A DNA stretch of 32,000 nucleotides from the NCBI RefSeq assembly GCF_003351905.1, contig NZ_CP022339.1, positions 990,001 to 1,022,000 on the forward strand. Reading direction: 5' to 3'. The translations under genes were made by a program, and so were the position numbers. The notes under the pieces were generated by a model. It was given only the letters and a program-made list of their open reading frames with translations. It was not told the origin of the DNA and made no database searches. Positions 3,806-30,391 of this stretch are shown here, piece by piece (the first letter of the stretch is position 1; every line of letters starts with the position of its first letter). This DNA is from Candidatus Saccharimonadota bacterium. Its GTDB lineage: Bacteria > Bacteroidota > Bacteroidia > Cytophagales > Amoebophilaceae.

Positions 3806-6800
3806 ATGTTGCATCAACTTTTTTCTAAAATTTTTACTTCCAAGAAAGAGAAACAACACCGTTTTTATAATCAAAAAGTAGCTGAGATCAATCAAAATTG
3901 TCAGTTATTGTCAGCTCTTTCCCATGATCAATTACGGGAAGAAGTTAGGGTTATTCGCCAAGAGATCGCTACACATTTGCAACCTATTGCATCTGAAATG
4001 GAGCGACTCAGTAGATCAATGGATGAACAGCTGACCGATGCGTTGGCTACTGCGCATGCAAGCCTAGAGGGGTATAAGCGTTTGGAGGAGTTAAAAAAAC
4101 AACATAAAGCGGCGTTGGCTACCATTTTAGATCAGGTATTGGTGCGGGTCTTTGCCATTGTAAAAGAAACTGCGCGCCGTTTTAAGGATCATAGCCAGTT
4201 AAGAGTTGTTGCCAATGACCATGATCAAGCCATTGCTACCCGTAAGCCTTATGTAACCATAGCCGGCAATCAAGCCATTTGGCAAAATAGATGGCCCGTA
4301 AGTGAACACATCGTTGTTTGGGCAATGGTTCATTATGATGTGCAATTGATAGGTGGGATGGTCTTGCATCAAGGGAAAATAGCTGAAATGGCTACTGGTG
4401 AGGGTAAAACGTTGATTACCACCCTAGCTGCCTTTTTAAATGCATTAAGCAATGAAGGTGTGCATGTGGTTACGGTAAACGACTACTTAGCTAAGAGAGA
4501 TGCGGAATGGATGGCACCTATTTTTGAGTTTCATGGTTTTACGGTAGACTGCATAGATAACTACCCTGCCTACTCCATCGAGCGACAACGTGCCTATCAA
4601 GCAGATATTATATTTGGTACCAATAATGAGTTTGGGTTTGATTACCTCAGGGACAATATGGCAACAGATGCCAGTGATTTGGTACAGCGTGCCCACTATT
4701 TTGCTATTGTAGATGAAGTAGACTCTGTACTGATCGATGATGCTAGAACACCACTTATCATTTCAGGTCCTGTAGAAGAGAGTGATGAGCATATTTATAA
4801 AGAGTTGGCGCCTAAAATTGCACAGGTTTATGCGCTACAAAAGGAGCTAGTGATTAAGCTGTTGCAAGAAGCAAAGCAAAAAATCAAAGCAGGTAACGTA
4901 GAGGAAGGAGGGCTTGCCCTTTTTCGTGCGTATAGAGGGTTGCCTAAATACAAACCTTTGATTAAGTTTCTTAGCGAAAAAGGGATGCGTCAGATCCTAG
5001 ATAATGTAGAATCTTATTACATACAGGAAAATGCGAAGATGATGCCTGAAGCAGACCAACCGCTTTTCTTTTCCATTGATGAAAGGCACAACAATGTTGA
5101 GATTACTGAAAAGGGGCTTACCTATTTAACGGAGCAAGAAAACGATCCCTCTTTCTTTGTATTACCAGATGTAGCCGCCCACATTGCAGCTATTGAGAAC
5201 GATACGGCTTTGACGCATGAAGAAAGTCTTGCCAAGCGCGCTTATTTTCAGCAAACCTATAAGGTAAAAGCACAACGCATTCATGCCCTGCATCAGTTGT
5301 TAAAAGCATATGCCTTGTTTGAAAAAGATGTCGCCTATATTGTAGCCAAGGGTAAGGTAAAAATTGTAGATGAACAAACCGGGCGCGTATTAGACGGGCG
5401 TAGATATTCAGATGGTCTACACCAAGCCTTAGAAGCCAAAGAGGGCGTTAAGATTGAAAAACCCTCTCAAACCTATGCTTCCATTACCCTTCAGAGCTAC
5501 TTTCATATGTATGATAAGTTAGCGGGTATGACCGGTACAGCGGAAACAGATGCAGAGGAATTTTGGGATATTTATGGCCTTGCAGTAGTACCTATTCCTA
5601 CCCATAGGCCACTGTTACGGGAAGATAGAGAAGATAAGATTTACAAAACAGTACGGGAAAAATTTAATGCCATCATTGAAGAAATTGTCGCCTTATCGAG
5701 TCAAGGGAGACCAGTTTTAGTGGGTACTACTTCTGTAGAAATATCTGAATTGGTGAGTAAGATGCTTGCTTTTCGTAAAATTCCCCATCAGATTTTAAAT
5801 GCAAAACACCATCAAAAAGAAGCAGAAATAGTAGCGCAAGCTGGTATTGCTGGTACCGTTACCATTGCTACCAATATGGCGGGTCGTGGTACCGATATTA
5901 AATTGACCCAACCCTCAAAAGAGTCCGGTGGGTTGGCTATTATTGGTACAGAGCGCCATGAGTCAAGGCGTGTAGACAGGCAGTTGCGTGGCCGTTCTGG
6001 GCGACAAGGCGATCCAGGTTCTTCGCAGTTTTTCCTTTCTTTAGAAGATAGTTTAATGCGGCTCTTTGGCTCTGATAGAATTGCTGCTATAATGGATAGA
6101 ATTGGTTTAGAAGAGGGGGAAGTGATTCAACATAGTATGGTGAGTAGGTCTATCGAAAGGGCACAAAAAAAAGTAGAGCAGAACAACTTTGCGATGCGCA
6201 AACGTTTGTTAGAGTATGATCGTGAAATGGGTACCCATCGTGGTGCCGTTTATCAACGGCGAAACCATGCCTTATTGGGTAAAGGCGTAGAGGTGGATAT
6301 TATGCATATGCTCTACGATACCGTTAACAATATCATAGAGCATGAAGATAGCAAACAAGAAGCCAGTTTTCTAAACCCGATTTTTTCCACTGTATTTGGC
6401 GAAACTTTTGCAGCATCATTTTTTGAAGGTAAAAAGAAAGAAGTGCTGGTAGAAGCTATCTATCAGCAGCTGATGCAGGTATATTACCAGCGCACTACAG
6501 CGTTGCAAAAGCGGTTATTTGACTATTTTACAGCATCTTCTGTAGGGAATGGAGCTCGTTTCGAAGCCCCCTTTTTTGATGGAAAAATATATATTAGTGC
6601 TACGGCTTACCCTACTACCTTTGTGGCATCTGGTGGCAGAGCGCTCATTAAAAATTTAGAATGCATGGTTGTCCTGCATGTCATTGATCAACATTGGAAA
6701 AGTCATTTACGGGTCATGGATGATTTAAAGCAATCGGTTCAAAATGCGATTTATGAAAGGCAAGATCCGATTATAACCTTTAAGTTTGAAGCTTACCACT

Positions 6801-10715: not shown

Positions 10716-10787
10716 TATTATAGTCACGTAACCCAAAAAGAGGCAATACATACCTGATAAAAAATGTGTCTTGTAAAAAGTGGAAAA

Positions 10788-10826
10788 ATTGATAGGTATG
10801 GATTTTATAAATCCATACCTATCAAT
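10788..10826. terminator. 18-bp perfect hairpin at a convergent junction (probable bidirectional terminator)
   Basis: attgataggtatggattt-tat-aaatccatacctatcaat. On the - strand it is followed by TTTTCCACTTTTT. It abuts the stop codon of the Rpn gene. Confidence 0.5.
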
Positions 10827-11785
10827 CATATAAGTTGCTCAATATGAGAAGAAGATAAGCCAGTAAGAAGGACAATGTCATCTATAGGATATCCTTTTTG
10901 AAGCATAACTTGAGCGATTTCTATCTTACCCTCTATCTTACCCTCTATCTTACCCTCTATCTTACCCTCTATCTTACCCTCTATCTTACCCTCTATCTTA
11001 CCTTCTATTTTACCCTCTTTTCTAGCTTGGTTTTTCATATAGTCTTCTACTGCTTGATTATCCATGATACGCTTGATCTCTTGTTCATAGGTAAGTAATT
11101 CCATTTCTGACCAGTTAAACCGATTTAAAGCTTCATAAGCGCGCTGAATAACCAAATCAGAATCTAGTATCTTGCTAACATCTTTTTCACTCGTAGAGGA
11201 AGCATAACGAAAAAAGTAACACCACTTCTCTACCATGGTGGAGAGGTCTTCTATAGCGGTAATCTTAAATTTGGGTAGTTCTATAAAAGTAAAAGAGAAA
11301 TCTTGTAGATCATGCGTGTAGGTATTAGCGTCTAAAATGATATGATTGGATAGGTAGTCTTTTTTGTCAGGAAAAACAATATAATCTGTAATAGCGATAA
11401 AAATAACTGCTTTAAGATCTTGATATCTAGCGCCTATTTCTTGCCCTGCATTGAGCTGTCTGGAATAGGCTTTTGCAGCATAATACTGTGCCCTTTTTTC
11501 AAAGCCCTCTCGGGGAGCGACTTGCATCTCTACGATGATTTGCTTGCCATATTGGTCTGTGCATAGTACATCTACTATACTTTCTTTTTTGCAAGCAATA
11601 TCCGGATCCTGAATTGTAGAAAGAAAAGTTACTTCTTTTACTTTATCTGGACCATGTAGATCCAGCACATCATTGATAAAGTGAATAAGAATATCTTTAT
11701 GCTTTTCACTACCAAATATCTTGCGAAAAGCTACGTCGTTCTTCGGATTTAAAAACTTTGAGGTCACCATAGGGGTATATAACAT
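10826..11785 (-). CDS. Rpn-family recombination-promoting nuclease / putative transposase (PD-(D/E)XK)
   Basis: The N-terminus LNPKNDVAFRKIFGSEKHKDILIHFINDVL is typical of the family. The putative catalytic pattern is D (IVDVLCTD) ... E-x-Q (IIVEMQ). The C-terminal helix region ends in TGLS...IEQLI. Confidence 0.85.
   Translation of the reverse strand: MLYTPMVTSKFLNPKNDVAFRKIFGSEKHKDILIHFINDVLDLHGPDKVKEVTFLSTIQDPDIACKKESIVDVLCTDQYGKQIIVEMQVAPREGFEKRAQYYAAKAYSRQLNAGQEIGARYQDLKAVIFIAITDYIVFPDKKDYLSNHIILDANTYTHDLQDFSFTFIELPKFKITAIEDLSTMVEKWCYFFRYASSTSEKDVSKILDSDLVIQRAYEALNRFNWSEMELLTYEQEIKRIMDNQAVEDYMKNQARKEGKIEGKIEGKIEGKIEGKIEGKIEGKIEGKIEIAQVMLQKGYPIDDIVLLTGLSSSHIEQLI
10921..11016 (-). repeat. 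12-bp tandem repeat x8 (in-frame, encodes GKIE x8)
   Basis: The unit is ctatcttaccct: six perfect copies at 10921-10992 and two one-mismatch copies up to 11016. It lies inside the Rpn CDS. Confidence 0.95.
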
Positions 11786-12789: not shown

Positions 12790-14202
12790 ATGCATCACCA
12801 ACAACAGACCATTCAACATATTGTTCGCTTTGAAGGCATTGGGCTGCATACCGGTAAAAAGGTTAAGGTTACCTTAACCCCTATGCCCATGGATACAGGT
12901 ATACAATTTCAACGAGTAGATCTACCTGATCAGCCTTGTATAGAGGCATCTGTAGCTTATGTGGTGGGAACAGAAAGGGGTACAGTGCTGGCAAAAGAGC
13001 AAGCACGGGTAGCTACAGTAGAACATTTATTGGCCGCTATTGTAGGGCTGGAGATAGATAATATTTGTGTACAATTAGATGGGCCAGAAGTCCCAGATCT
13101 AGATGGAAGTGCCTTGGCTTTTGTGGAGCTGCTATTAGAGGCAGGGCGGCTGCAACAGGAAGCGCCCCGAACCTTTTTTAGCCTTAAGAAAAAGTTTGTC
13201 TATGATGACCCTGATACCGGTAGCCATTATGAAGTTTATCCTGATACCAATTATAGCTTGCAGGTAACCCTTGCCTACAATAGATGGCCAATAGGCCATC
13301 AATATGCACACCTAGCTACATTAGTCCATTTTAAAGAAGAGATTGCCGCTGCCCGCACCTTTACCTATTTAGATGAAGTAGTTGCCTTGTATCGCAAGGG
13401 ACTGCTACAGGGGGGAGATCCTGCCAAAGCAGTTATTTTTTCTGAGCATAGTGATAACACAGAGTGTTTGCAACAGGTCGCCCAGTTATCTGGTAAGAAA
13501 ATTGAAAGTTTGGTCCTACCTACCAATCCATCTTCCTTGCGTTATATTAATGAACCAGCACGTCATAAACTATTGGACCTAATCGGTGACGTAGCCTTAT
13601 TGGGTAGGCCTTTACAAGGGAAACTGATTGCCCATATGCCTGGGCATGGGGCTAATATACCTTTTGTGGCTGCTTTGCAAAAGCATTTGCTTAGGCAAGA
13701 AGCCAAAGGAGCTCCCATCTGTGACCTAGAGGCTCCACCCCTGTTCGATGTAAAGCAGATCAGTAGCATGCTACCCCATCGTTATCCCTTTCAATTGGTA
13801 GATAAAATTATGGAGCTAGGTTCTTCCCATGTAATTGGGGTTAAAAACGTAACGATGAATGAGCCCTTTTTTCAAGGCCATTTTCCTGGTACCCCTGTTA
13901 TGCCTGGCGTTCTACAGGTAGAGGCATTGGCACAGACCGGTGGCCTATTGGTATTGCATAAGGTACCGGACCCAGCGGAATATTTAACTTATTTTCTCTC
14001 TATTGATGGGTGTAAATTCCGTCGTATGGTCGTGCCTGGAGATACCCTGGTATTACATTGTGTACTGCTTTCAGCTATTAAATTTAGTACTACTGAAAAG
14101 CAGTCTATAGGGATCGCAAAGGTAAAAGGTCGTATTTTTGTAGGTGAACATTTGGTGTGCGAAGCAGTCTTATTGGCTCAAATTGTGAAGCAACATGAAT
14201 GA
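12790..14202 (+). CDS. lpxC/fabZ: Bifunctional UDP-3-O-acyl-GlcNAc deacetylase / 3-hydroxyacyl-ACP dehydratase (LpxC-FabZ fusion)
   Basis: The N-terminal half is LpxC-like ([20 protein letters not shown]). The C-terminal half is a FabZ hot-dog domain ([36 protein letters not shown]). The ATG at 12790 fits homologue N-termini; the ORF-track start at 12733 is an alternative. Confidence 0.93.
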
Positions 14203-14959
14203 TATCCATCCCGGTGCTACGCTGGGTCAAGCAGTAACCATAGGCAGTTTTGTAACCATTCAGGAAGATGTAGTCATAGGTGAGGGCACCTATATAGCGC
14301 CTCATGTGACCATTATGTCCGGAAGCCGTATTGGCAAAAACTGTCAGATTTTTTCAGGTGCCGTCATTGGCGCGGTTGCGCAAGATCGCAAGTCAGCTGC
14401 CTTAAATACCTATGTAGAAATTGGAGATCATACTGTTATACGTGAATTTGTTACCATTAATAGAGGCACTGTTGGCAATACCGTTGTAGGGTCTTATGTA
14501 TTGCTTATGGCCTATGTACATGTGGCCCATGATTGTATCATTGAAGATCATGTGACCGTTACAAATGCCGTGCAATTAGCCGGCCATGTACAGCTGTACC
14601 ACCATGCAGTAATAGGCGGTATGGCAGCTGTGCATCAGTTCATGCGCGTAGGAGCCTATAGTATGGTCGCTTCTAAAAGTATTGTGCGTAAAGATGTGCC
14701 CCCTTTTATTAAAGTAGCAAGAGAACCATTGTGCTATTGTGGCATCAACCTCGTCGCATTACAACGCCATGGCTTTACTAAAGAGCAGTGGAATAGCATA
14801 TGCCATAGCTATCTTTTGATTTATCAAAGTCAATTATTACTACCTTTGGCATTAGAAGAGGTCGAGCAACGGGTTGACCATACGCAAGAAAAAGAAATGA
14901 TCCTCTCTTTTATACGTAGCAGCCATAGAGGTATTGTGAAAAAAATAATACCTATGTAA
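14195..14959 (+). CDS. lpxA: Acyl-ACP--UDP-GlcNAc O-acyltransferase LpxA
   Basis: 254 aa with hexapeptide-repeat N-terminal two-thirds and a helical C-terminal domain. It overlaps the fabZ end by 8 nt, consistent with translational coupling. Confidence 0.93.
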
Positions 14960-14965
14960 GTAGGG

Positions 14966-15187
14966 TATTTTATCTCACTTTTTTCTTGATAAAAAAGTGG
15001 ACAAAAAATCAAGCCCTCGGTAAAAAGTCGCTGAAAGTGACATCTTACAGATGGGAAAACAGTTCCCTTTGGGGGCTTCAAAGGAAACTATTTTCCTAAT
15101 CATTTGTAAGCGGCTACTTTCTACACCCCGACCTTTTACAGAAGCGTTGTTCTTTTAACGCAAAAAACCATTGCGCTGAACACATAG
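14966..15187 (+). repeat. Copy A of the ~225-nt structured intergenic repeat
   Basis: Shares long identical blocks with 23758-23975 and 29100-29327: cacttttttcttgataaaaaagtggacaaaaaatcaagccctcggtaaaaag, gctgaaagtg, acagatgg, ggcttcaaaggaaact, ctttctacacc and ttaacgcaaaaaacca. It lies between the lpxA stop and the stop of the - strand ankyrin gene. Confidence 0.85.
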
Positions 15188-15222
15188 ATAGAATTTAAAA
15201 ACTCAAAAAATAATTTACATAC

Positions 15223-16002
15223 TTAATTAGGCAGAGCCTCTTCCAAGAGAGCCACTATTCCCTGGCGACCAAGGCGTTCTGCAACATCTATAGGTGTTTC
15301 ATTATTTTTATTTGCTTTGATATTAGCGCCTGCCTTCAATAATATTTTAACCATTTTTTGAGCTTTTTCTTCATTGTCTAAAGCTACTGCATCGAATAAA
15401 GCATTATTTCCCAAGTTATCTGATGCATTCACGTTAGCTCCATGGTCCAATAACACTTCAGTAATTTTTAGAAATCCTTTCTTTATTGAAAGAAATAAAG
15501 GGAATAATAATTTATCATTGTCAGTTTTACATGTTGATATATTAACATCACACTTAAGGTTAAAGCTTGTATTTATATAATCTTTACTATAACTGCATAA
15601 CTTGAGTAACGTTTTGACGAGTGGTATGGAACCCGAATTTATTGCATTAAGCAAGTCCATAGGATTATCCTGACAAGGAACACCCTTCATGACAGCTTCA
15701 AAAAACTTTTCTTCAAACCAATGGGGTATAGATTCTTTACCCATCATTCTTGGAAGCGCTTTTTGAATTGCTGAGGCATTCTTAATAATTATATTGAGTG
15801 TCAAATCATTTTGAGAAACGTTTAAAAGGTTATAGATTATTGTGAGAGGAGGTTGAGTAAAGATATGATCTGGATCCATATCCTGCTCTTTGTTTGTAAT
15901 TTCACTTTCCCCATGTTGGATTGTCTCGCCTCCCAACATACCAGACCTTCCTAGCCCATTACAAGATGTAATTAGTGGCAATAAAATTAAATATTTTTTC
16001 AT
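15223..16002 (-). CDS. Ankyrin-repeat lipoprotein
   Basis: The signal peptide has a lipobox (MKKYLILLPLITSC). C-terminal ANK repeats are present (LFPLFLSIKKGFLKITEVLLDHGANVNASDNLGNNALFDAV..., KILLKAGANIKANKNNETPIDVAERLG). Confidence 0.8.
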   Translation of the reverse strand: MKKYLILLPLITSCNGLGRSGMLGGETIQHGESEITNKEQDMDPDHIFTQPPLTIIYNLLNVSQNDLTLNIIIKNASAIQKALPRMMGKESIPHWFEEKFFEAVMKGVPCQDNPMDLLNAINSGSIPLVKTLLKLCSYSKDYINTSFNLKCDVNISTCKTDNDKLLFPLFLSIKKGFLKITEVLLDHGANVNASDNLGNNALFDAVALDNEEKAQKMVKILLKAGANIKANKNNETPIDVAERLGRQGIVALLEEALPN

Positions 16003-22307: not shown

Positions 22308-23702
22308 ATGTATCCACTTTCAGAGATTAAAAATCTTTCTACTTTAGATAGTCAGAAAGTCGTTAGGGTTAGAGGTAGGGTCTTTTCCAAAAAAGACTGC
22401 GGGCAGGTGTTATTCTTGATTTTACGCGATGGTATTGATACCTTACAGGCGGTGCTTGTCAAAAATCAAGCAGATACGCAGCTTGCTATAGAGGATTATA
22501 AGCTATTGCGTAGCATTGAAAATGAATCTTTTATTGAAATCATTGGTCAGGTCTATTGCGCTGAAAAAGCCGTATTGGCCTGCTCTAAGCAATCGATTGA
22601 GTTAGCTATAATGGGGTATACAGTGCTTAGTAGGTCTGTATTAGATTTGCCGATTACCCTAAAAGAGGCAGCCTTTATAGAAGATAAAAAAGGTGAAAAT
22701 CAAATCTTTTCATCTATTCAGTATGTAAAACGATTGGATAACCGCGTATTAGATTTGCGTACCGATTTGGCGCAGGCTATTTTTCGCATCAATGATGGGA
22801 TGCTTTTTTATATACAACAGTATCTACGCGAGCATGGTTTTATAGAAATCAAAACACCTAAGTTAATAGGGGGTGTTTCTGAGGGTGGTGCAGATCTATT
22901 TAAGGTAGACTATTTTGGCAAGCCGGCTTGTTTGGCACAGAGTCCGCAGCTATACAAGCAAATGGCAATTATAGGTGATTTTAAGCGTGTATTTGAGGTG
23001 GGCCCCGTCTTTCGTGCAGAAAATTCCGATACCAATAGACACCTAACAGAGTTTATAGGTGTTGACCTTGAAATGGTTATAGATCGGGACTATATGGAAG
23101 TAGTCCGTCTGGTATATCAGCTATTGGTTGATCTTTTTGGTGCATTGAATAAAAAATATAATCGAGAGATTGCCATTATACAATCTTTTTTTGAGGTCCC
23201 TAGGCTCACGCTTGCCTCAGAATTGGTTGTGGTGTCTTTTCCCGATGCGGTTGCTTTGTTAAGGTCCCATGGCAGGGAGCGCGGGGCGTTAGATGATTTG
23301 TCTACGGAGGAGGAAAAACAGTTAGGTGCGCTTGTAAAAGCAAAGTACCACACAGATTTATATGTGATTACCCGTTATCCATCTCGTGTGCGTCCCTTTT
23401 ATACTATGGTTGATCCAGATGATAGTCAATATACCCATGCCTATGATTTTATGTTGCGCGGTGCAGAAATTCTCTCTGGTGCACAAAGAATAGATGATTA
23501 TACCATGTTATCAGAACGTGTCCGTGAGATGGGCATAGACCCCACTACCATCTCCCATTATTTGAATGCATTTAAATATGGTGCACCGCCTCATGCTGGT
23601 GTGGGCATGGGGTTAGAACGGATGTTGAAATATTTTTTAGGTCTACCAGATGTACGTTACAGTAATCTCTTTCCACGTGATCCTAAGCGGTTGCATCCTT
23701 AA
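22308..23702 (+). CDS. aspS: Aspartate--tRNA ligase, archaeal/eukaryotic type (class IIb, no bacterial insertion domain)
   Basis: 464 aa with AQSPQLYKQM, motif 2 GPVFRAENSDTNRHLTEFIGVDLEM, RGAEILSGAQRI, and motif 3 plus tail GAPPHAGVGMGLERMLKYFLGLPDVRYSNLFPRDPKRLHP. The ending FPRDPKRL.P is the hallmark of non-bacterial-type AspRS. Confidence 0.88.
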   Translation: MYPLSEIKNLSTLDSQKVVRVRGRVFSKKDCGQVLFLILRDGIDTLQAVLVKNQADTQLAIEDYKLLRSIENESFIEIIGQVYCAEKAVLACSKQSIELAIMGYTVLSRSVLDLPITLKEAAFIEDKKGENQIFSSIQYVKRLDNRVLDLRTDLAQAIFRINDGMLFYIQQYLREHGFIEIKTPKLIGGVSEGGADLFKVDYFGKPACLAQSPQLYKQMAIIGDFKRVFEVGPVFRAENSDTNRHLTEFIGVDLEMVIDRDYMEVVRLVYQLLVDLFGALNKKYNREIAIIQSFFEVPRLTLASELVVVSFPDAVALLRSHGRERGALDDLSTEEEKQLGALVKAKYHTDLYVITRYPSRVRPFYTMVDPDDSQYTHAYDFMLRGAEILSGAQRIDDYTMLSERVREMGIDPTTISHYLNAFKYGAPPHAGVGMGLERMLKYFLGLPDVRYSNLFPRDPKRLHP

Positions 23703-23757
23703 TCAGGTAAAGCATGGGTAGGCTATTTGTGTCTATTCTCACCATTGGTTAATAATG

Positions 23758-23975
23758 GATTTTATCCCACTTTTTTCCTTATAAAAAAGTGGACAAAAAA
23801 TCAACCCATCGGTAAAAAGTAGCTGAAAGTGCCATCTTACAGATGGAAAAACAGAAAGCGCCCACTGCATAGGCTTCAAAGGAAACTGTTTTGCCTAGTC
23901 ATCTGTAAAATGCCACTTTCTACACCACGACTTTTTACAGGGGCGTTTTACTTTTAACGCAAAAAAACTGTGATT
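23758..23975 (+). repeat. Copy B of the ~225-nt structured intergenic repeat
   Basis: Same orientation and block order as copies A and C. The 5' hairpin is ccacttttttccttataaaaaagtgg. The apical segment and last ~20 nt diverge. It lies between the aspS stop and the stop of the - strand lipoprotein gene. Confidence 0.85.
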
Positions 23976-23988
23976 GGAATAGATACGT

Positions 23989-24597
23989 CTATGGAGAAGC
24001 TAATAAAGTAGTATTCGAAGGTCTTTGCAGTATGAATAATACAGCATTAATAGCCGTCTCAGCCATAGCATCAGCAAGCATCTTTGCATACTGCTTTGCA
24101 TGTTTAGAAACGCCATATTTCATGTTATACTCCGTATAGGTATGGCTAAGCAAATTATTGATAAGATTATCCGGTATATTGTTATTGATCACATTAGATA
24201 GCTGATTATTTATATCTATAGAAAATATCTTAATGCCTTGATAACCAAGATAATCATAAGTATAGTCGTTTGCTTTTATATTAAAATGGTTAGGTAGCAT
24301 AGTCTCCATTTTTTCGCGAAACGTGTTAACAGGGTTCTTCTTGTGAACTGGAGTTTCCTTAAGGTATCTGGCATAGTAAAGAAAATAGTCGCTTAACTCC
24401 TCTTTAACTGTAGGATATTGCTCCTGGAATATACGCTCCATAGCCTGTTCGTTCTTATCTGTAGCACGTCTGCTCGCAAAACAACAAGAATCTCTACTAT
24501 TTGGTTGCATGCCATTAGGTATACCATGTTGATGCATGGTATGGCTACACCCTCCTAGGATGAGTAGATATAATAAATAAACTGTTCTAGTAAACAT
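23989..24597 (-). CDS. Hypothetical lipoprotein (no recognisable domain)
   Basis: 202-aa ORF with a signal peptide and lipobox-like LILGGC. The rest is Asn/Tyr-rich, and I recognise no family motif. Confidence 0.6.
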   Translation of the reverse strand: MFTRTVYLLYLLILGGCSHTMHQHGIPNGMQPNSRDSCCFASRRATDKNEQAMERIFQEQYPTVKEELSDYFLYYARYLKETPVHKKNPVNTFREKMETMLPNHFNIKANDYTYDYLGYQGIKIFSIDINNQLSNVINNNIPDNLINNLLSHTYTEYNMKYGVSKHAKQYAKMLADAMAETAINAVLFILQRPSNTTLLASP

Positions 24598-24904
24598 TGA
24601 TATGCTATCTAATTATGTGTGATTAAAATAAAAACTTGCCTACTCCATCTGAATCTGTTGGTTGATTAGGAATAGTTCTCTTTTTTTTAATATTAATAAA
24701 TATTTTTTTATTATGCAATATCTATTGCGCGTAGCAATTTGGGTATTGTGTCTTTTCTATGCGCCTCAAATACATTGAGGATAGGGTCTATTCTGCTGCG
24801 CCTATCTGCTTGTTATAGCTATCTTGCGAAAGTTGCGCTTTCGGTCCATTTTTATCCATTTTATTCGTATTTTTAACCATTTCTAAACCCTTAATACCCC
24901 ACTT

Positions 24905-27421
24905 ATGGATAGCACACCAACAGATCGTATTATACCCATCAATATAGAGGACGAAATGCGCGATGCCTACATAGATTATTCTATGTCTGTGATTGTAGCC
25001 AGGGCATTGCCTGATGTGCGGGATGGGTTAAAACCTGTACATAGGCGGGTATTGTATGGTATGTATGAGCTAGGGCTCAGTCAAAGTAAATCTTACAAAA
25101 AGTCTGCAAGAATTGTAGGAGAGGTGCTGGGTAAGTATCATCCACATGGTGATGTAGCCATTTATGAAGCGATGGCCCGTATGGCTCAAAGTTGGTCACT
25201 GCGTTATCCTCTTATAGAGGGCCAGGGTAATTTTGGCTCTATCGATGGAGATGCGCCTGCAGCGATGCGTTATACCGAAGCCCGTTTGGTACGTATTTCT
25301 GAGGAGCTGATTAAAGAAATAAATAAAGATACTGTTGATTTTCAGTTTAATTTTGATTCTTCCTTGGAAGAGCCTGTTGTATTGCCTGCGAAGCTACCCA
25401 ACTTGCTTTTAAATGGTGCGTCTGGTATTGCAGTGGGTATGGCCACCAATATGGCTCCACATAATCTATCGGAAACCTTAAGTGCCATTGTGGCCTATAT
25501 TGAGGATCATGACATTACCATTTCTGCATTAATGGAATATATGGTTGCCCCTGATTTTCCTACTGGTGGTATCATCTATGGGTATAATGGAGTGCGCGAA
25601 GCCTTTCAAACAGGCAGGGGGCGTGTGCTATTGCGTGGGAAAGCTACGGTTGAAGTGGCCGCTAATGGGAAAGAGCAAATCATTGTGACTGAAATACCCT
25701 ATCAGGTGAACAAAGCGGTTATGATAGAGCGGACGGCACATCTGGTGAATGAAAAAAAAATAGAAGGTATTGCCGATATTCGGGATGAATCAGACAAGGA
25801 GGGTATGCGTATTGTTTATGATCTCAAACGAGATGCCATAGCCCATGTGGTACTCAATAACCTCTACAAACAAACCCAACTACAAAGCTCTTTTAGTGTA
25901 AACAATGTAGCGTTAGTAGAAGGTAGGCCTAAGGTTTTAAACCTTAAAGAACTCATTGTTCATTTTGTAGACCATAGGCATGAGGTATTGGTACGCAAGA
26001 CTACCTTTGATCTAGAGCATGCCAAGAAGAAAATACATCTATTAGAAGGTTATCTTATCGCTTTAGATCATTTAGATAGCGTCATTGCGTTGATTCGTGG
26101 TGCTCAAGATCCAGAAGTAGCTAAAGTTGCATTGATGGAAACCTTTCCCTTGAGTGAAGTACAAGCAAAAGCCATTCTAGAAATGCGTTTGCAGCGGCTT
26201 ACCGGTTTAGAGCGTGCAAAGATAGTGGAAGAACATCATCAAGTGCAAAAACTTATTGACCATTTAGTAGCGGTATTGGCTGATAAGGCGTTGCGCATGC
26301 GGTTGATTAAAGAAGAACTCATTGCCCTTAAAGAGCGTTATGGTGATGCACGTAGAACCGTAGTGGAGTATGAGGCAGATGCCTTTACCATGGAAGATAT
26401 GATTCCAGATACGGAAATGGTGATTATGATTTCCAACCAAGGTTACATTAAGCGGACTCCATTGATTGACTATCGGTTACAAGGTCGAGGGGGAGTAGGG
26501 GCTAGGGGCATTACCACTAAAAAAGATGATTGTACAGAACATCTATTTATAGCTACGGCACACCAATATTTGTTAATATTTACCGAGTATGGAAAGATCT
26601 ATTGGGTAAAGGTCTATACCATACCAGAAACCAAAAAGACTACACAAGGCAAAGCCATACAGAACCTAATCAATATAGCACCTGGAGATCAGGTGCGTAG
26701 TATTATTCAGGTGAGGGATTTGAAAGATAATAGCTATGTAGATAGCCATTATGTAGTGATGTCTACCAGGCAAGGGATTATTAAAAAAACCCCTTTGCGT
26801 GCCTATGCTACCCCACGTGCCAATGGGATTCATGCTATTGTGATTCGAGCAGGCGATTCGCTATTAGATGTGCAGCTAACCAATGGTAGTCATCACATTG
26901 TACTCGCCTTAGAGTCTGGAAGGGCCACGCAGTTTAATGAGCAAGATGTACGCCCTATGGGCCGTGTGGCCTCTGGTATAAGAGGCATTACGTTGGGGCA
27001 TGCAGCGGATCGCGTGATTGGTATGGCCTGTTTCCCAACATCTGATTTAGATGTGTTGGTGGTTTCTGAAAATGGCTATGGTAAACGTTCGCCTCTGGTG
27101 GACTATCGGATTACCAAAAGAGGTGGTAAAGGTGTGAAAACCATTCAGATTACTGAAAAAACCGGAAAGTTAGTTGCGATTCATGCGGTGAAAAACCAGG
27201 ATGAATTGATGATTATGAACCAGTCTGGTGTGGCCATTCGGATTGAAGTAGGTAGCTTACCCCTGATCGGTAGGGCTACTCAGGGCGTTCGATTGATTCG
27301 GTTGGGCAAAAATGATAAGATTGCTTCGGTAGCCAGAATCGATGTGTTAGAAGATGGCGAAGAACCTAAAGCAGGTATAGCGCAATCATTGGATACAGTG
27401 TCAGATGAAATGAGCGTATAG
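24905..27421 (+). CDS. gyrA: DNA gyrase subunit A
   Basis: Has the QRDR region [15 protein letters not shown], the active-site [10 protein letters not shown] motif, and C-terminal beta-pinwheel repeats. Length is 838 aa. Confidence 0.97.
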
Positions 27422-27520
27422 CGTTCAATTATAGATAGTATCTTGTTAACTGACTTATTGCTTGTCCATTTAAGCCCGCCTTAAGGGTACAAACAGCTTT
27501 CAATTAGTTATATAGCGGTC

Positions 27521-29083
27521 ATGTATACATTTTATTTTTTACTGATATTTTTAGTCACTCCCTCGTCTCTTTTTGCTATACCTGCATCCATCGCACGCAT
27601 TGTGCGTACCTTTGAAGGTCAAAATAAGCAGAAAAGTGCTAAGCCCAAGTCTGATCAGGTTACAGTTAGATCAGGAGATGGTTCGGCTAATGACACCCAA
27701 TCAGCTGATCCATCACTTCTCTCTAATGCGCAGCAGGCTCGACTAGCTATAGATGCAGCCATTAAAAACAATAAGTTGGTAGGCCATCCTGCTACGTGGT
27801 ATTATAGAGGGGTGATCTATGATCGACTTGTAAGGGATCATATTGCTGAAGCATCCACTGTATCTATTTTGTTAGATGAAGCACTTGCCGCCTATGCGCA
27901 GGCTAAGAAATTAAGTCTATCTAAAAGCAAGCAGTTTTATAGTTTTACCCTGAATAATGTAGCCGCTTTGTGGTCTTACTTTTTAAATAGGGGTATAGGT
28001 TACTATAGGCAAGAAGCAGTTGAGCAAGCCTTAGCGCAATTTGCTATTTGTAGACGTATCTTACCGGAAGAGCCGACTCCATTGTTGTATACGGCTATTG
28101 TCTATCATAGTGTTGATCAGCCAGAAAAGGCATTGCGTTATTATCAAGATTATGTAGCAGTCCACGGGCCGCATTTTGCGGTTGCACGTGCTATGGCTGC
28201 TATTCATTACCATAAGCTTAAAAATTTTGATAAGGCCATAGCTATTTTAAATGAAGCACTCCTTCAATTTCCTTTTCATAATGAGTTATTAGAAGAAAAG
28301 TGTTTGATCTATGAAACTTCTGGAAGCATAGATGATTATAGCACCTCTTTAAAGGTTGGGTTGCAAGATAAAAAAATAGATGCCTATTATGCATATGCTT
28401 ATCTGTTGGAACATCAAGGTCGTATTCAGGAGGCCACTGGTTATTATCAGGAGCTTTTACAGGAGCATCCACATCAATATGATACATTGCGCCAAGTGGG
28501 TTTTATATTTTATAACGAAGCCATAAAACTATATACCGACATCCTAAAATTAAACCGACAAAAGGAGCAACTTGCCTATTCTGCGTTGGTTGAATCGTTC
28601 GGATTAATGCATGTAATGATGCAGCGTTTATGGCTGCATACGATTTGGCGCAATAGCGCCTTACCTAGGGGATTTTTTCCTAAGGAACCACCATTTTCTA
28701 CCCGTCCTATATGGGTCGTATATGCGCATCCATTGGTTCAGCATAGTAGCGTAAGTCGCCTAGTTCATCTATTACAAGCAGGAAAGGTACCCTGTACGAG
28801 TCCTTTGTATGGCTACATCCATAGAAAAGTTGCCACTGCATGGGCTGCTAATAAGTCGGTGCAAACGGCAACAGCATTAGAACAATGCCTGCAACAAGCT
28901 TTGTATTACTTAAAAATGGTGCATAGAAAAGATAAAAAAGATCATAAAGTTGCACAAGCTTTGTACTATAGCTATTATCACTTAAAAAAGCACAGGGCTG
29001 CCTATAAGCTATTGCAAGCGATGCAAAAGCAGAAATGCCCTCTTGAAGATGATCCATTTATTGGGCATCAAGACCAGGTATAA
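27521..29083 (+). CDS. Secreted TPR-like repeat protein
   Basis: Has an N-terminal signal-like sequence (MYTFYFLLIFLVTPSSLFAIPAS). Helical-repeat segments follow a TPR-like A/Y/L pattern (ALAAYAQAKKL, ALAQFAICRRILPEEP, EKALRYYQDYVAV, EATGYYQELLQEHP). Confidence 0.65.
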   Translation: MYTFYFLLIFLVTPSSLFAIPASIARIVRTFEGQNKQKSAKPKSDQVTVRSGDGSANDTQSADPSLLSNAQQARLAIDAAIKNNKLVGHPATWYYRGVIYDRLVRDHIAEASTVSILLDEALAAYAQAKKLSLSKSKQFYSFTLNNVAALWSYFLNRGIGYYRQEAVEQALAQFAICRRILPEEPTPLLYTAIVYHSVDQPEKALRYYQDYVAVHGPHFAVARAMAAIHYHKLKNFDKAIAILNEALLQFPFHNELLEEKCLIYETSGSIDDYSTSLKVGLQDKKIDAYYAYAYLLEHQGRIQEATGYYQELLQEHPHQYDTLRQVGFIFYNEAIKLYTDILKLNRQKEQLAYSALVESFGLMHVMMQRLWLHTIWRNSALPRGFFPKEPPFSTRPIWVVYAHPLVQHSSVSRLVHLLQAGKVPCTSPLYGYIHRKVATAWAANKSVQTATALEQCLQQALYYLKMVHRKDKKDHKVAQALYYSYYHLKKHRAAYKLLQAMQKQKCPLEDDPFIGHQDQV

Positions 29084-29099
29084 TGGACTGAAAAATAAT

Positions 29100-29327
29100 G
29101 ATTTTTATCCTACTTTTTTCTTGATAAAAAAGTGGACAAAAAATCAAGCCCTCGGTAAAAAGCCGCTGAAAGTGTCATCTGACAGATGGAAAAACAGAAA
29201 GCGCCCCCTTCGGGGGCTTAAAAGGAAACTGTTTTTCTACATCATCTGTAAAATGCCACTTTCTACACCACGACTTTTTACAGGGGCGGTTCTTTTTGAC
29301 GCAAAAAACCACTGCGCTGAACACATA
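29100..29327 (+). repeat. Copy C of the ~225-nt structured intergenic repeat (best preserved)
   Basis: Contains all shared blocks plus an apical GC hairpin, gccccc-ttc-gggggc. Its 3' end (ccactgcgctgaacacata) matches copy A. It lies between the TPR gene stop and the ftsY stop. Confidence 0.85.
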
Positions 29328-29446
29328 CAAATTAAGGACAAGCTGTCCGAATATAGCAAGTTACTATACCCCTAGAGGTAGGTAGTATATTTCATTATGC
29401 GTGAGCGGGAGGGGAGGTGGTTTTTTGTGCTAAAGCAGCTTTTCTC

Positions 29447-30391
29447 TTACCATTTTTGAAATAAAGAAGCAACAAATGCGTGAGGATCAAAAGATTTTAA
29501 GTCTTCTACTTTTTCGCCTATACCAATGTATTGGATGGGGATGGAAAACTGATCTGCTATACCTAGCACCATACCCCCTTTAGAGGTCCCATCTAGTTTG
29601 GTAACAATGATACCCGTTACAGCTACAGCTGCTGTAAAGGCCTCGGCTTGCAGAAAGGCATTTTGCCCATTGGTGCCATCTAACACCAACAATACCTCTT
29701 GGGGAGCGCCAGGAAGACACTTTTGAATGGTTCGTTTAATTTTGGCTAGTTCATTAATCAGATGTACTTTGGTATGCAGCCGACCGGCCGTGTCTATGAT
29801 CACTACATCTGTATGATTGCGTAGGCTTGCCTGTATCGTTTCATGCGCAACAGAGGAAGGATCTGACTGCATCGCTCGTGCTACTACTTCTGCTCCTACA
29901 CGATTGCCCCAAATCGTTAGTTGTTCTACCGCTGCTGCGCGAAAGGTATCGGCAGCACCCAGCGTAACTTTTTTCCCTTGTGCTATAAACTGTGCTGCCA
30001 GTTTACCAATAGTAGTGGTTTTGCCTACACCATTTACACCTACTACCAGTATGACATGCGGATAGACGGGTGGTGTAGCTACCTGTGATGGGGAGGAAAT
30101 ATGTAAAAGTTGCTCCGTTTCAGACTGTAAAATTTGGTCTAACTCAGCCGTGGTCAGGTATTTATCCCGTGCAACCCGTTGCTCTATGGCGCCTATAATC
30201 TTAAGCGTTGTAGCTACACCCACATCTGCACCAATCAACAACTCCTCTAACCGATCCAGTACTTCACCATCAACCGTAGACTTGCCAGCAATCACTTTAG
30301 ATAGCTTCCCCCAAAAAGATTGACGCGTCTTAGACAATGCTTCTACTAAATGCGGCTTGGTTGACTTAGCAAAAAAATCAAAAATACCCAT
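29447..30391 (-). CDS. ftsY: Signal recognition particle receptor FtsY
   Basis: SRP GTPase motifs [22 protein letters not shown] and TKLDG are present. At 314 aa it is the short Bacteroidota-type form. Confidence 0.95.

Follow-up and report, generated by a model that had tools for sequence, protein, structure and literature searches.

The 32,000-nucleotide stretch of DNA analysed here, hereafter the window (positions 990,001 to 1,022,000 of contig NZ_CP022339.1, RefSeq assembly GCF_003351905.1), carries three copies of a noncoding repeat between converging genes. These repeats very probably represent a hairpin-rich family of non-autonomous DNA transposons, or MITEs (miniature inverted-repeat transposable elements), of Candidatus Cardinium, which make 8-bp target-site duplications (TSDs) and accumulate behind genes. 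Like a MITE, the intact element is short (~257 bp, that is <~500 bp), present in high copy number, bounded by terminal inverted repeats (TIRs) and a TSD of fixed 8-bp length, and devoid of coding capacity. The clearest evidence for insertion is a site between gyrA and a TPR gene that is empty in the window and filled in Candidatus Cardinium sp. TP, a mite symbiont. TP contigs are syntenic with the window, to which they are 80-96% identical; the window therefore comes from a close relative of that symbiont. A first-pass annotation of the window had seen neither TIRs nor TSDs and had excluded a MITE on these grounds; the TIRs, the TSDs and the pair of empty and filled sites overturn that exclusion.

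Three repeats in the window belong to one family

The three window repeats, roughly 235-260 bp long and all in plus orientation, align over ~240 nt with a mean column identity of 86%. An nhmmer profile built from them gave matches at 14956-15192, 23747-23990 and 29092-29333 (E-values of 1e-78 to 3e-83), and a 16-nt core, AAAAAGTGGACAAAAA, occurs three times against 0.01 occurrences expected by chance. These results bear out the first-pass description of a three-copy noncoding repeat in three of the four convergent junctions of the window, and the shared sequence blocks quoted in it are present in all three copies. The coordinates given there clipped the element: when the copies were aligned together with their flanks, the similarity reached ~25 nt further to the left and ended in sharp edges on both sides. 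The flanking genes named there (lpxA, aspS and TPR on one side, ankyrin, orphan and ftsY on the other) agree with our Pfam scans, aspS being a class II aminoacyl-tRNA synthetase (aaRS) gene of the aspS/asnS type.

Among the window copies only the second one, c2 (23729-23986, plus strand, 258 bp; nhmmer E=8e-82), is full length with both TIRs, as detected by a search for TIR pairs. It lies between the aaRS gene (22308-23702, plus strand), 26 nt past its stop, and an orphan open reading frame (ORF; 23989-24597, minus strand), 2 nt from its stop. The left TIR of c2, GTGTCTATTCTCACCATTGGTT (23729-23750), aligns to the family left TIR, and the right TIR, AAACTGTGATTGGAATAGATAC (23965-23986), is of the A type and was found by the same TIR-pair search. 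Between them, on the same strand, the alignment places a conserved 5' module consisting of a hairpin and an A-rich linker (23766-23805), followed by a long hairpin (23806-23944) with an apex at 23860-23874 that is terminator-like on the minus strand.

The first copy, c1 (14956-15187, plus strand; nhmmer E=1e-78 and alignments), is 5'-truncated (left TIR missing or degenerate), and its truncated left edge contains the lpxA stop codon (14957-14959). It is flanked by lpxA (14195-14959, plus strand) and the ankyrin gene (15223-16002, minus strand). The 5' module of c1 (14976-15013, plus strand) folds as a 9-10-bp hairpin, CACTTTTTT-CTTGAT-AAAAAAGTG, followed by GACAAAAAATCAAG; next comes the long imperfect hairpin of ~130 nt (15014-15144, plus strand), which has a GC-rich apex at 15066-15084 and minimum free energy (MFE) z-scores of -4.3 on the plus strand and -7.7 on the minus strand. 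A B-type right TIR, AACCATTGCGCTGAACACATAg (15166-15187, plus strand), matches the family right end AACCACTGCGCTGAACACATAC. The positional ortholog of c1 in TP is at 5490-5731 of locus L029 (L-numbers are labels of the loci collected in this study).

The third copy, c3 (29092-29328, plus strand; nhmmer E=3e-83), has no recognisable left TIR and a B-type right TIR at 29307-29328, and it is flanked by the TPR gene (27521-29083, plus strand), whose stop (29081-29083) is 8-16 nt ahead of it, and ftsY (29447-30391, minus strand). Its 5' module is at 29111-29148 in the alignment and its long hairpin at 29149-29287 (both plus strand; MFE z-scores of the hairpin, -5.7 on the plus and -8.9 on the minus strand). 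Its apex GCCCCCGAAGGGGGC, with GCTTTCTGTT after it (29203-29217, minus strand), is the highest-ranking terminator-like site of the scanned region. The sequence to the left of c3, GTATAATGGACTGAAAAATAA, is common to TP, where, in a comparison with the end of a TP contig, no element follows it. Altogether, the window copies start 0-26 nt past the stops of the plus-strand genes and end 2-118 nt from the stops of the minus-strand genes.

The only other convergent junction of the window (10716-10825) holds an 18-bp perfect hairpin and no repeat copy, as the first-pass annotation had described. Ahead of this hairpin, TTGATAGGTATGGATTT-TAT-AAATCCATACCTATCAA (10769-10826), stands CTTGTAAAAAGTGGAAAAATTGAT, a sequence with a loose similarity to the conserved 5' module (CTTGATAAAAAAGTGGACAAAAAATCAAG). 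The arrangement could be a degraded, smaller form of the module-plus-hairpin layout; it was not picked up with the profile of the repeat family.

The copies do not encode a protein. Variation among them shows no 3-base periodicity (p=0.46) and a frame is open over >=90% of the length in only 12 of 48 copies, which rules out a protein-coding reading. Because the copies are without a coding signal, the ORFs predicted across them (14830-15081 and 29043-29375) are spurious, as had been suspected. The earlier failure to recognise a known RNA family also proved correct: at the gathering threshold Rfam found only one tRNA in the window, and a permissive search on the copies gave best scores of 15-23 bits against thresholds of 38-128.

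Terminal inverted repeats, target-site duplications and an empty target site

To collect further copies, one genome per prokaryotic species was searched for exact occurrences of a 21-mer taken from the most conserved block. Matches came from about 36 stretches in Candidatus Cardinium sp. TP, from six in Cardinium cBcalN2 and from one in the Cardinium of Nabis limbatus, with a handful in other Bacteroidota. The TP loci examined cover ~370 kb, roughly one third of the TP genome, and a profile search of them returned 42 full-length and 21 partial copies; outside TP, four copies were found in Cardinium cBcalN2 and one in the Cardinium of Nabis limbatus. The family as a whole is found in Cardinium symbionts of insects and mites. 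With the canonical copy, blastn against PLSDB plasmids and INPHARED phages gave no match, two Cardinium plasmids contained no copy, and a viral scan gave one chance match only, inside a coding sequence.

The collected copies revealed the ends of the element. The intact form is bounded by TIRs of 20-22 bp, the left one being GTATCTGTTCACGATACTGGTT and the right one either AACCAGTGACTGGAACAGATAC (A type) or AACCACTGCGCTGAACACATAC (B type), and such TIR pairs stand ~257 bp apart in dozens of copies. The copies c1 and c3 have lost the left TIR or never had one, and the repeats of c2 have diverged, and for this reason the TIRs had been missed when only the window was considered. Of 38 TIR-bounded copies, four are flanked by a perfect 8-bp TSD (8/8) and three by one matching at 7/8 positions. 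When flanks of different copies were paired as a null, 8/8 matches occurred in 0.07% and 7/8 matches in 0.5% of the pairs. One variant carries two right ends in tandem, and there the TSD GCTAAGGC comes after the outer, that is the second, of the two.

Between gyrA and the TPR gene the window contains a single copy of the target, AACTGACT (27448-27455, no strand assigned), and no element. At the corresponding site of TP there is a full element flanked by AACTAGCT and AACTGGCT (window 27400-27540 aligned with L027 1740-2110). Full copies inserted within other copies were also found (L007 ~2240-2300, L011 ~5600-5660 and L018 ~420-470); two of these nested insertions are in the loop of the 5' hairpin, after TTTTTTC and CTT, which hints at a target preference for the AT-rich 5' hairpin. 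A short variant of ~150-157 bp (L020 6017-6173, L019 3400-3538, L010 3894-4040 and L048 4780-4920) has both ends and the 5' module and is without the long hairpin.

Internal structure and flipped segments

The first-pass annotation had suggested a structured repeat, and a strong, conserved secondary structure was indeed found, with folding z-scores of the copies from -4 to -9 relative to shuffled controls. From 5' to 3' the fold consists of a 10-bp hairpin, the ~130-nt imperfect hairpin with its GC-rich tip, and a small 3' hairpin. In an alignment of 48 copies, 86% of the structure cells pair, against 42-50% when the partners were slid, and pairs in which both positions have changed number 35 against 18.6 in shuffles. 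In the diverged copies of cBcalN2 and the Nabis symbiont the hairpin is kept while the sequences of its arms are different. The most conserved block of the family is the 5' module, with a column identity of 0.98, a value inflated because the loci were collected through an exact 21-mer inside this module.

Wobble positions did not indicate on which level the pairing is maintained. The GT:AC counts were 131:250 with the set of pairs taken from the minus-strand MFE structure and 185:180 with the plus-strand set, each set favouring its own strand, so that the pairing pattern fails to separate selection at the RNA level from selection at the DNA level. The apical loop (columns ~162-165 of the A2 alignment) reads TTT/TTC in 21 copies and AAA in 12. 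In one copy (L041 922-1181) the central ~75 nt are inverted, and in another (L045 2687-2954) as well as in one copy from Rikenellaceae the 5' hairpin has the loop ATCAAG in place of CTTGAT. Flipped loops and segments of this kind are signatures of recombination between inverted arms at the DNA level.

Copies are enriched at convergent junctions and free in orientation

We compared 37 classifiable copies with a background of 164 junctions obtained from simple ORF calls in the same loci. Convergent junctions hold 13 of the 37 copies and make up 23 of the 164 junctions, a ~2.5-fold enrichment (Fisher p=0.007; p=0.04 without the window copies), and divergent junctions hold two copies and make up 27 of the junctions. 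The remaining 22 copies are between co-oriented genes. The earlier statement that the repeat fills convergent junctions therefore stands as an enrichment and fails as a rule. Such a distribution is in keeping with what would remain of any small insertion element after purifying selection. The claim that the copies always have the same orientation is right for the three window copies and does not extend to the family, in which the two orientations are represented 7:6 at convergent junctions and, counted against the direction of the genes, 11:11 at tandem ones; that the three window copies agree, which has a chance of 1/4, is a small-sample effect. A link with a nearby Rpn/PDDEXK_2 nuclease gene, which had also been raised, found no support, as genes of this kind do not co-occur with the repeats.

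The window and TP differ at individual sites, and their positional orthologs are not most closely related to one another. At the aspS site the TP copy shares its left boundary with c2 and has the inverted orientation; judged from the sequences, an in-situ inversion would be indistinguishable from an independent insertion. Next to c2, ~870 bp with the minus-strand orphan ORF 23989-24597 are present in the window (23987-24856) and absent from the corresponding TP interval (L027 4653-4716).

A hairpin block of the element recurs across Bacteroidota

The ~40-nt hairpin block of the 5' module (CCACTTTTTTCTTGATAAAAAAGTGGACAAAAAATCAAG) was found exactly in a metagenome-assembled genome (MAG) of Rikenellaceae, in three places, one of them with a stem shorter by 1 nt and the loop flipped to ATCAAG. 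The same block occurs once each in Winogradskyella, in a MAG of Chitinophagales, in one of Saprospiraceae, in another Bacteroidota MAG and in a metagenome contig, the only contig matched by a metagenome scan with a 26-mer. These loci outside Cardinium are L009 1772-2080, L036 1140-1250 and 6450-6700, L014 ~440-700, L025 ~450-720, L026 ~3470-3250 (minus strand), L039 and L051 1225-1400. Each time the block is intergenic and directly followed by a different hairpin of 130-170 nt. An additional upstream hairpin, TTAATCTGTCATC...GATGACAACCA, is common to the three copies from Rikenellaceae. At the block loci of other Bacteroidota we found no TIRs, no consistent neighbour gene and no Rfam family.

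Two readings fit these observations: the block is either the end of a mobile element that has moved horizontally through the phylum, or a conserved cis-acting or RNA module that the Cardinium MITE has taken up. It is conceivable, although rather unlikely, that the block together with a directly following long hairpin of arbitrary sequence represents an unrecognised, Bacteroidota-wide class of structured elements, from which the Cardinium MITE would derive by acquiring TIRs and becoming amplified; in line with this, the block is better conserved within Cardinium than the TIRs are. Members of such a class could be mobile hairpin elements using other machinery, or cis-acting or RNA modules. The cross-phylum block is the only part of these results that could lead somewhere new.

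A probable MITE and its missing parent

The intact element is organised as follows: a left TIR of 20-22 bp, a spacer of ~20 nt, the ~40-nt module (the 10-bp hairpin CCACTTTTTT/AAAAAAGTGG plus ACAAAAAATCAAG), the ~130-nt imperfect hairpin with its GC-rich tip, a short 3' hairpin with an A-run, and the right TIR. We propose that it is moved in trans by a transposase, probably of the DDE type, which would cut the target with an 8-bp stagger; cuts staggered in this way lead to the 8-bp target duplications. The conserved 5' module would act as a cis-acting site. Copies would persist mainly where their insertion is harmless, namely downstream of genes and in either orientation, and such persistence would explain why three of the four convergent junctions in the window are occupied. 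The nested inverted repeats (hairpin tip, hairpin arms and TIRs) would then recombine, flipping loops and sub-segments, and flipping of the whole element is possible.

Duplications of 8 bp are made by elements of the IS6, IS256, IS66, ISL3 or IS1595 classes. Judged by TSD length, the IS6, IS256 and IS1595 classes are candidates for the source of the transposase, none with matching ends so far. Transposases of IS6, IS256 and IS4 have been reported in cTPut (cTPut transcriptome paper). We searched all collected loci by tblastn with transposases of IS26, IS256 and the Cardinium IS6, IS5, IS3, IS982, IS110 and IS1595 elements and obtained two small fragments only. The plasmid pCher carries an IS256-like transposase relic (L054 37691-38812; 27% identity to IS256 over 383 aa in tblastn), for which we found no clear terminal repeats and no feature in the PLSDB gene table.

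Several observations weigh against identifying the repeat as a MITE. No parental insertion sequence (IS) with the same ends turned up in the collected loci, which for TP amount to about one third of the genome, on the Cardinium plasmids, in PLSDB or among the phages searched. A recognisable TSD is kept in only 7 of the 38 TIR-bounded copies, and the left TIR is absent from two of the three window copies. It is unusual for a MITE that the TIRs, with a column identity of 0.79-0.82, are less conserved than the internal module (0.98, inflated by the sampling as noted above). The 5' module is also present in other Bacteroidota, where no TIRs are visible. Finally, two Cardinium IS6 elements, ISCca2 on pcBtQ1 and a copy in a Cardinium MAG, have the ends GG(C/T)TCTGTCGC, in which only TCTGT is common to GTATCTGTTCAC.

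Other explanations for the repeats

The copies reach, or almost reach, the stop codons of the genes on either side and must therefore be part of the 3' ends of the transcripts of these genes, a position that makes two-way termination or stabilisation plausible. One could go further and suppose that selection keeps the element as a two-way terminator or insulator, a structured module of the 3' untranslated region (3'-UTR) for converging genes, with mobility being secondary. The enrichment at convergent junctions and depletion at divergent ones, and the small distances of the window copies to the stops on both sides (0-26 nt on the plus strand, 2-118 nt on the minus strand), are in line with this view, and so is the plain hairpin at the fourth convergent junction. 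So too are the GC-rich apex with the T-run behind it, which ranks first among the terminator-like sites of the scanned region, and the T-rich tracts past the base of the long hairpin on both strands; the terminator-like pattern is on the minus strand in c2 and c3, appears as a plus-strand variant in c1, and is found on both strands at the base of the long hairpin. However, purifying selection against insertion into promoters and genes predicts the same enrichment, most copies (22 of 37) are between co-oriented genes, and the orientation is random even though the terminators on the two strands are unequal. Moreover, terminator-like sites in the region, 18 against 14.1 in shuffles, are not above expectation. 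We therefore judge selection for termination to be an unlikely reason for the presence of the family. It is plausible from the sequence that copies of the MITE act in passing as two-way terminators or 3'-UTR hairpins, which would be a by-product.

The folding z-scores, the compensatory changes in the long hairpin between Cardinium lineages, and the nearly invariant ~40-nt block that recurs in distant Bacteroidota beside different hairpins would also be expected if the copies were genes that specify structured small RNAs of one family, or some other functional RNA, with the 5' block as its motif and the long hairpin as its body. We consider this very unlikely, because the TIRs and TSDs indicate an origin by transposition, the orientation relative to neighbour genes is random, and flipped loops and inverted segments, which would change the RNA, are tolerated. 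In addition, no Rfam family matched, the wobble pairs have no clear strand bias, and by-eye inspection of the consensus on either strand showed no Bacteroidota-type promoter (TTTG / TAnnTTTG). Even less probable, in our view, is movement as single-stranded DNA via the hairpins, in the manner of REP/REPIN-RAYT or IS200/IS605, with the TIR-like ends being incidental. Hairpins dominate the element, the hairpin module is better conserved than the TIRs, the copies in other Bacteroidota have hairpins and no TIRs, and the one orientation shared by the window copies is as strand-biased single-stranded insertion would produce. Nevertheless, HUH/Y1 transposases do not make 8-bp TSDs or leave a single-target empty site, the orientation of the family relative to neighbour genes is random with no conserved flanking tetranucleotide apparent, and no RAYT, TnpA or TnpB was seen near the copies, as far as checked by ORF clustering and by tblastn with DDE-type and Rpn queries only.

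For a hairpin-rich MITE there are practical consequences. Its copies generate spurious ORFs in annotation, such as 14830-15081 and 29043-29375. The family also flags where close Cardinium strains differ by insertion, deletion or inversion, and these differences provide a handle on the recent genome dynamics of an unculturable reproductive manipulator. If copies terminate or stabilise transcripts, they would shape the expression of the adjoining essential genes lpxA, the aaRS gene and ftsY.

Other repeats near the copies

The Rpn/PDDEXK_2 gene (10826-11785, minus strand) contains a 12-bp tandem repeat, TCTATCTTACCC, in 8.2 copies at 10920-11018, which encodes (EGKI)x9 close to the C-terminus of the protein. 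A further repeat, GTAGTAGTTAGGATTTAATCTGACAATTGTTAAATTATGATGATATAAATCTTAAC, unrelated to the MITE family, is present in inverted orientation at both ends of TP contig 26 (L027 1-110 and L029 5745-5870), and these contig ends correspond to lpxA/c1 and TPR/c3 of the window. This suggests another repeat family, with a rearrangement or an assembly break at the contig ends. A string similar to GTAGTAGTTAGGATTTAATCTGACAATTGTTAAATTATGATGATATAAATCTTAAC flanks a copy in L005.

Comparison with known systems

The only described Cardinium MITEs seem to be MITECca01 and MITECca02, which derive from the IS982-family element ISCca4 and have been reported only in the Cardinium symbiont of Oedothorax (PMC9769881). 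They come from the same host genus, and like the present repeats they are ~240-260 bp long, TIR-bounded, non-coding, high-copy and mostly intergenic. However, their ends, ACGTGAATTCGGGATT, are unrelated and their interior is AT-rich, whereas the present family differs in its TIRs and has an 8-bp TSD, a long hairpin in its interior and no parent found; identity with MITECca01 or MITECca02 was therefore rejected. In the cTPut transcriptome paper the term 'MITE' refers to transposase fragments only, and a 2025 Cardinium review makes no mention of such repeats. As far as we surveyed the literature, the family seems to be undescribed.

IS6/IS26 elements and their MITEs (ISCca2; MITEBth2 and MITEHarch3 in ISfinder; PMC6807381) resemble the repeat in having an 8-bp TSD, the length also listed for ISCca2. 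The IS6 family consensus, GGTTCTGTTGCAAA, has the TIR core TCTGTT in common with the Cardinium repeat, and IS6 elements are present in Cardinium, including cTPut. In contrast, the near-universal GG start and the G10 of IS6 TIRs are absent from the repeat. Its end, GTATCTGTTCACGA, has G1 and G7 as in IS6 but carries T2 and C10, so that 8 of 14 consensus positions match and the hallmark G2 is missing. The Cardinium IS6 ends themselves (GGYTCTGTCGC) match the repeat end at ~6-8 of 17 positions. Because the GG start and G10 are absent and the Cardinium IS6 ends match poorly, descent from IS6 is not supported.

Correia/NEMIS elements of Neisseria, ERIC/IRU, RUP and BOX are short repeats that fold into hairpins and can terminate, process or stabilise transcripts. 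Like the Cardinium family they are short, TIR-bounded or modular, form long hairpins and are found in 3' regions and between converging genes; they have no sequence relationship with it, and the TSD of Correia elements is TA, in contrast to the 8 bp of the Cardinium family. REP/REPIN-RAYT and IS200/IS605 palindromes share the hairpin-centred architecture, with some inverted isomers, but they make no TSD and insert strand-specifically beside a fixed short motif, neither of which applies to the Cardinium family. The Rickettsia palindromic elements, too, are hairpin repeats spread in the genome of an obligate intracellular bacterium, but these are often in frame within genes and have no clear TIRs or TSDs, whereas the Cardinium copies are intergenic and bounded by TIRs and TSDs.

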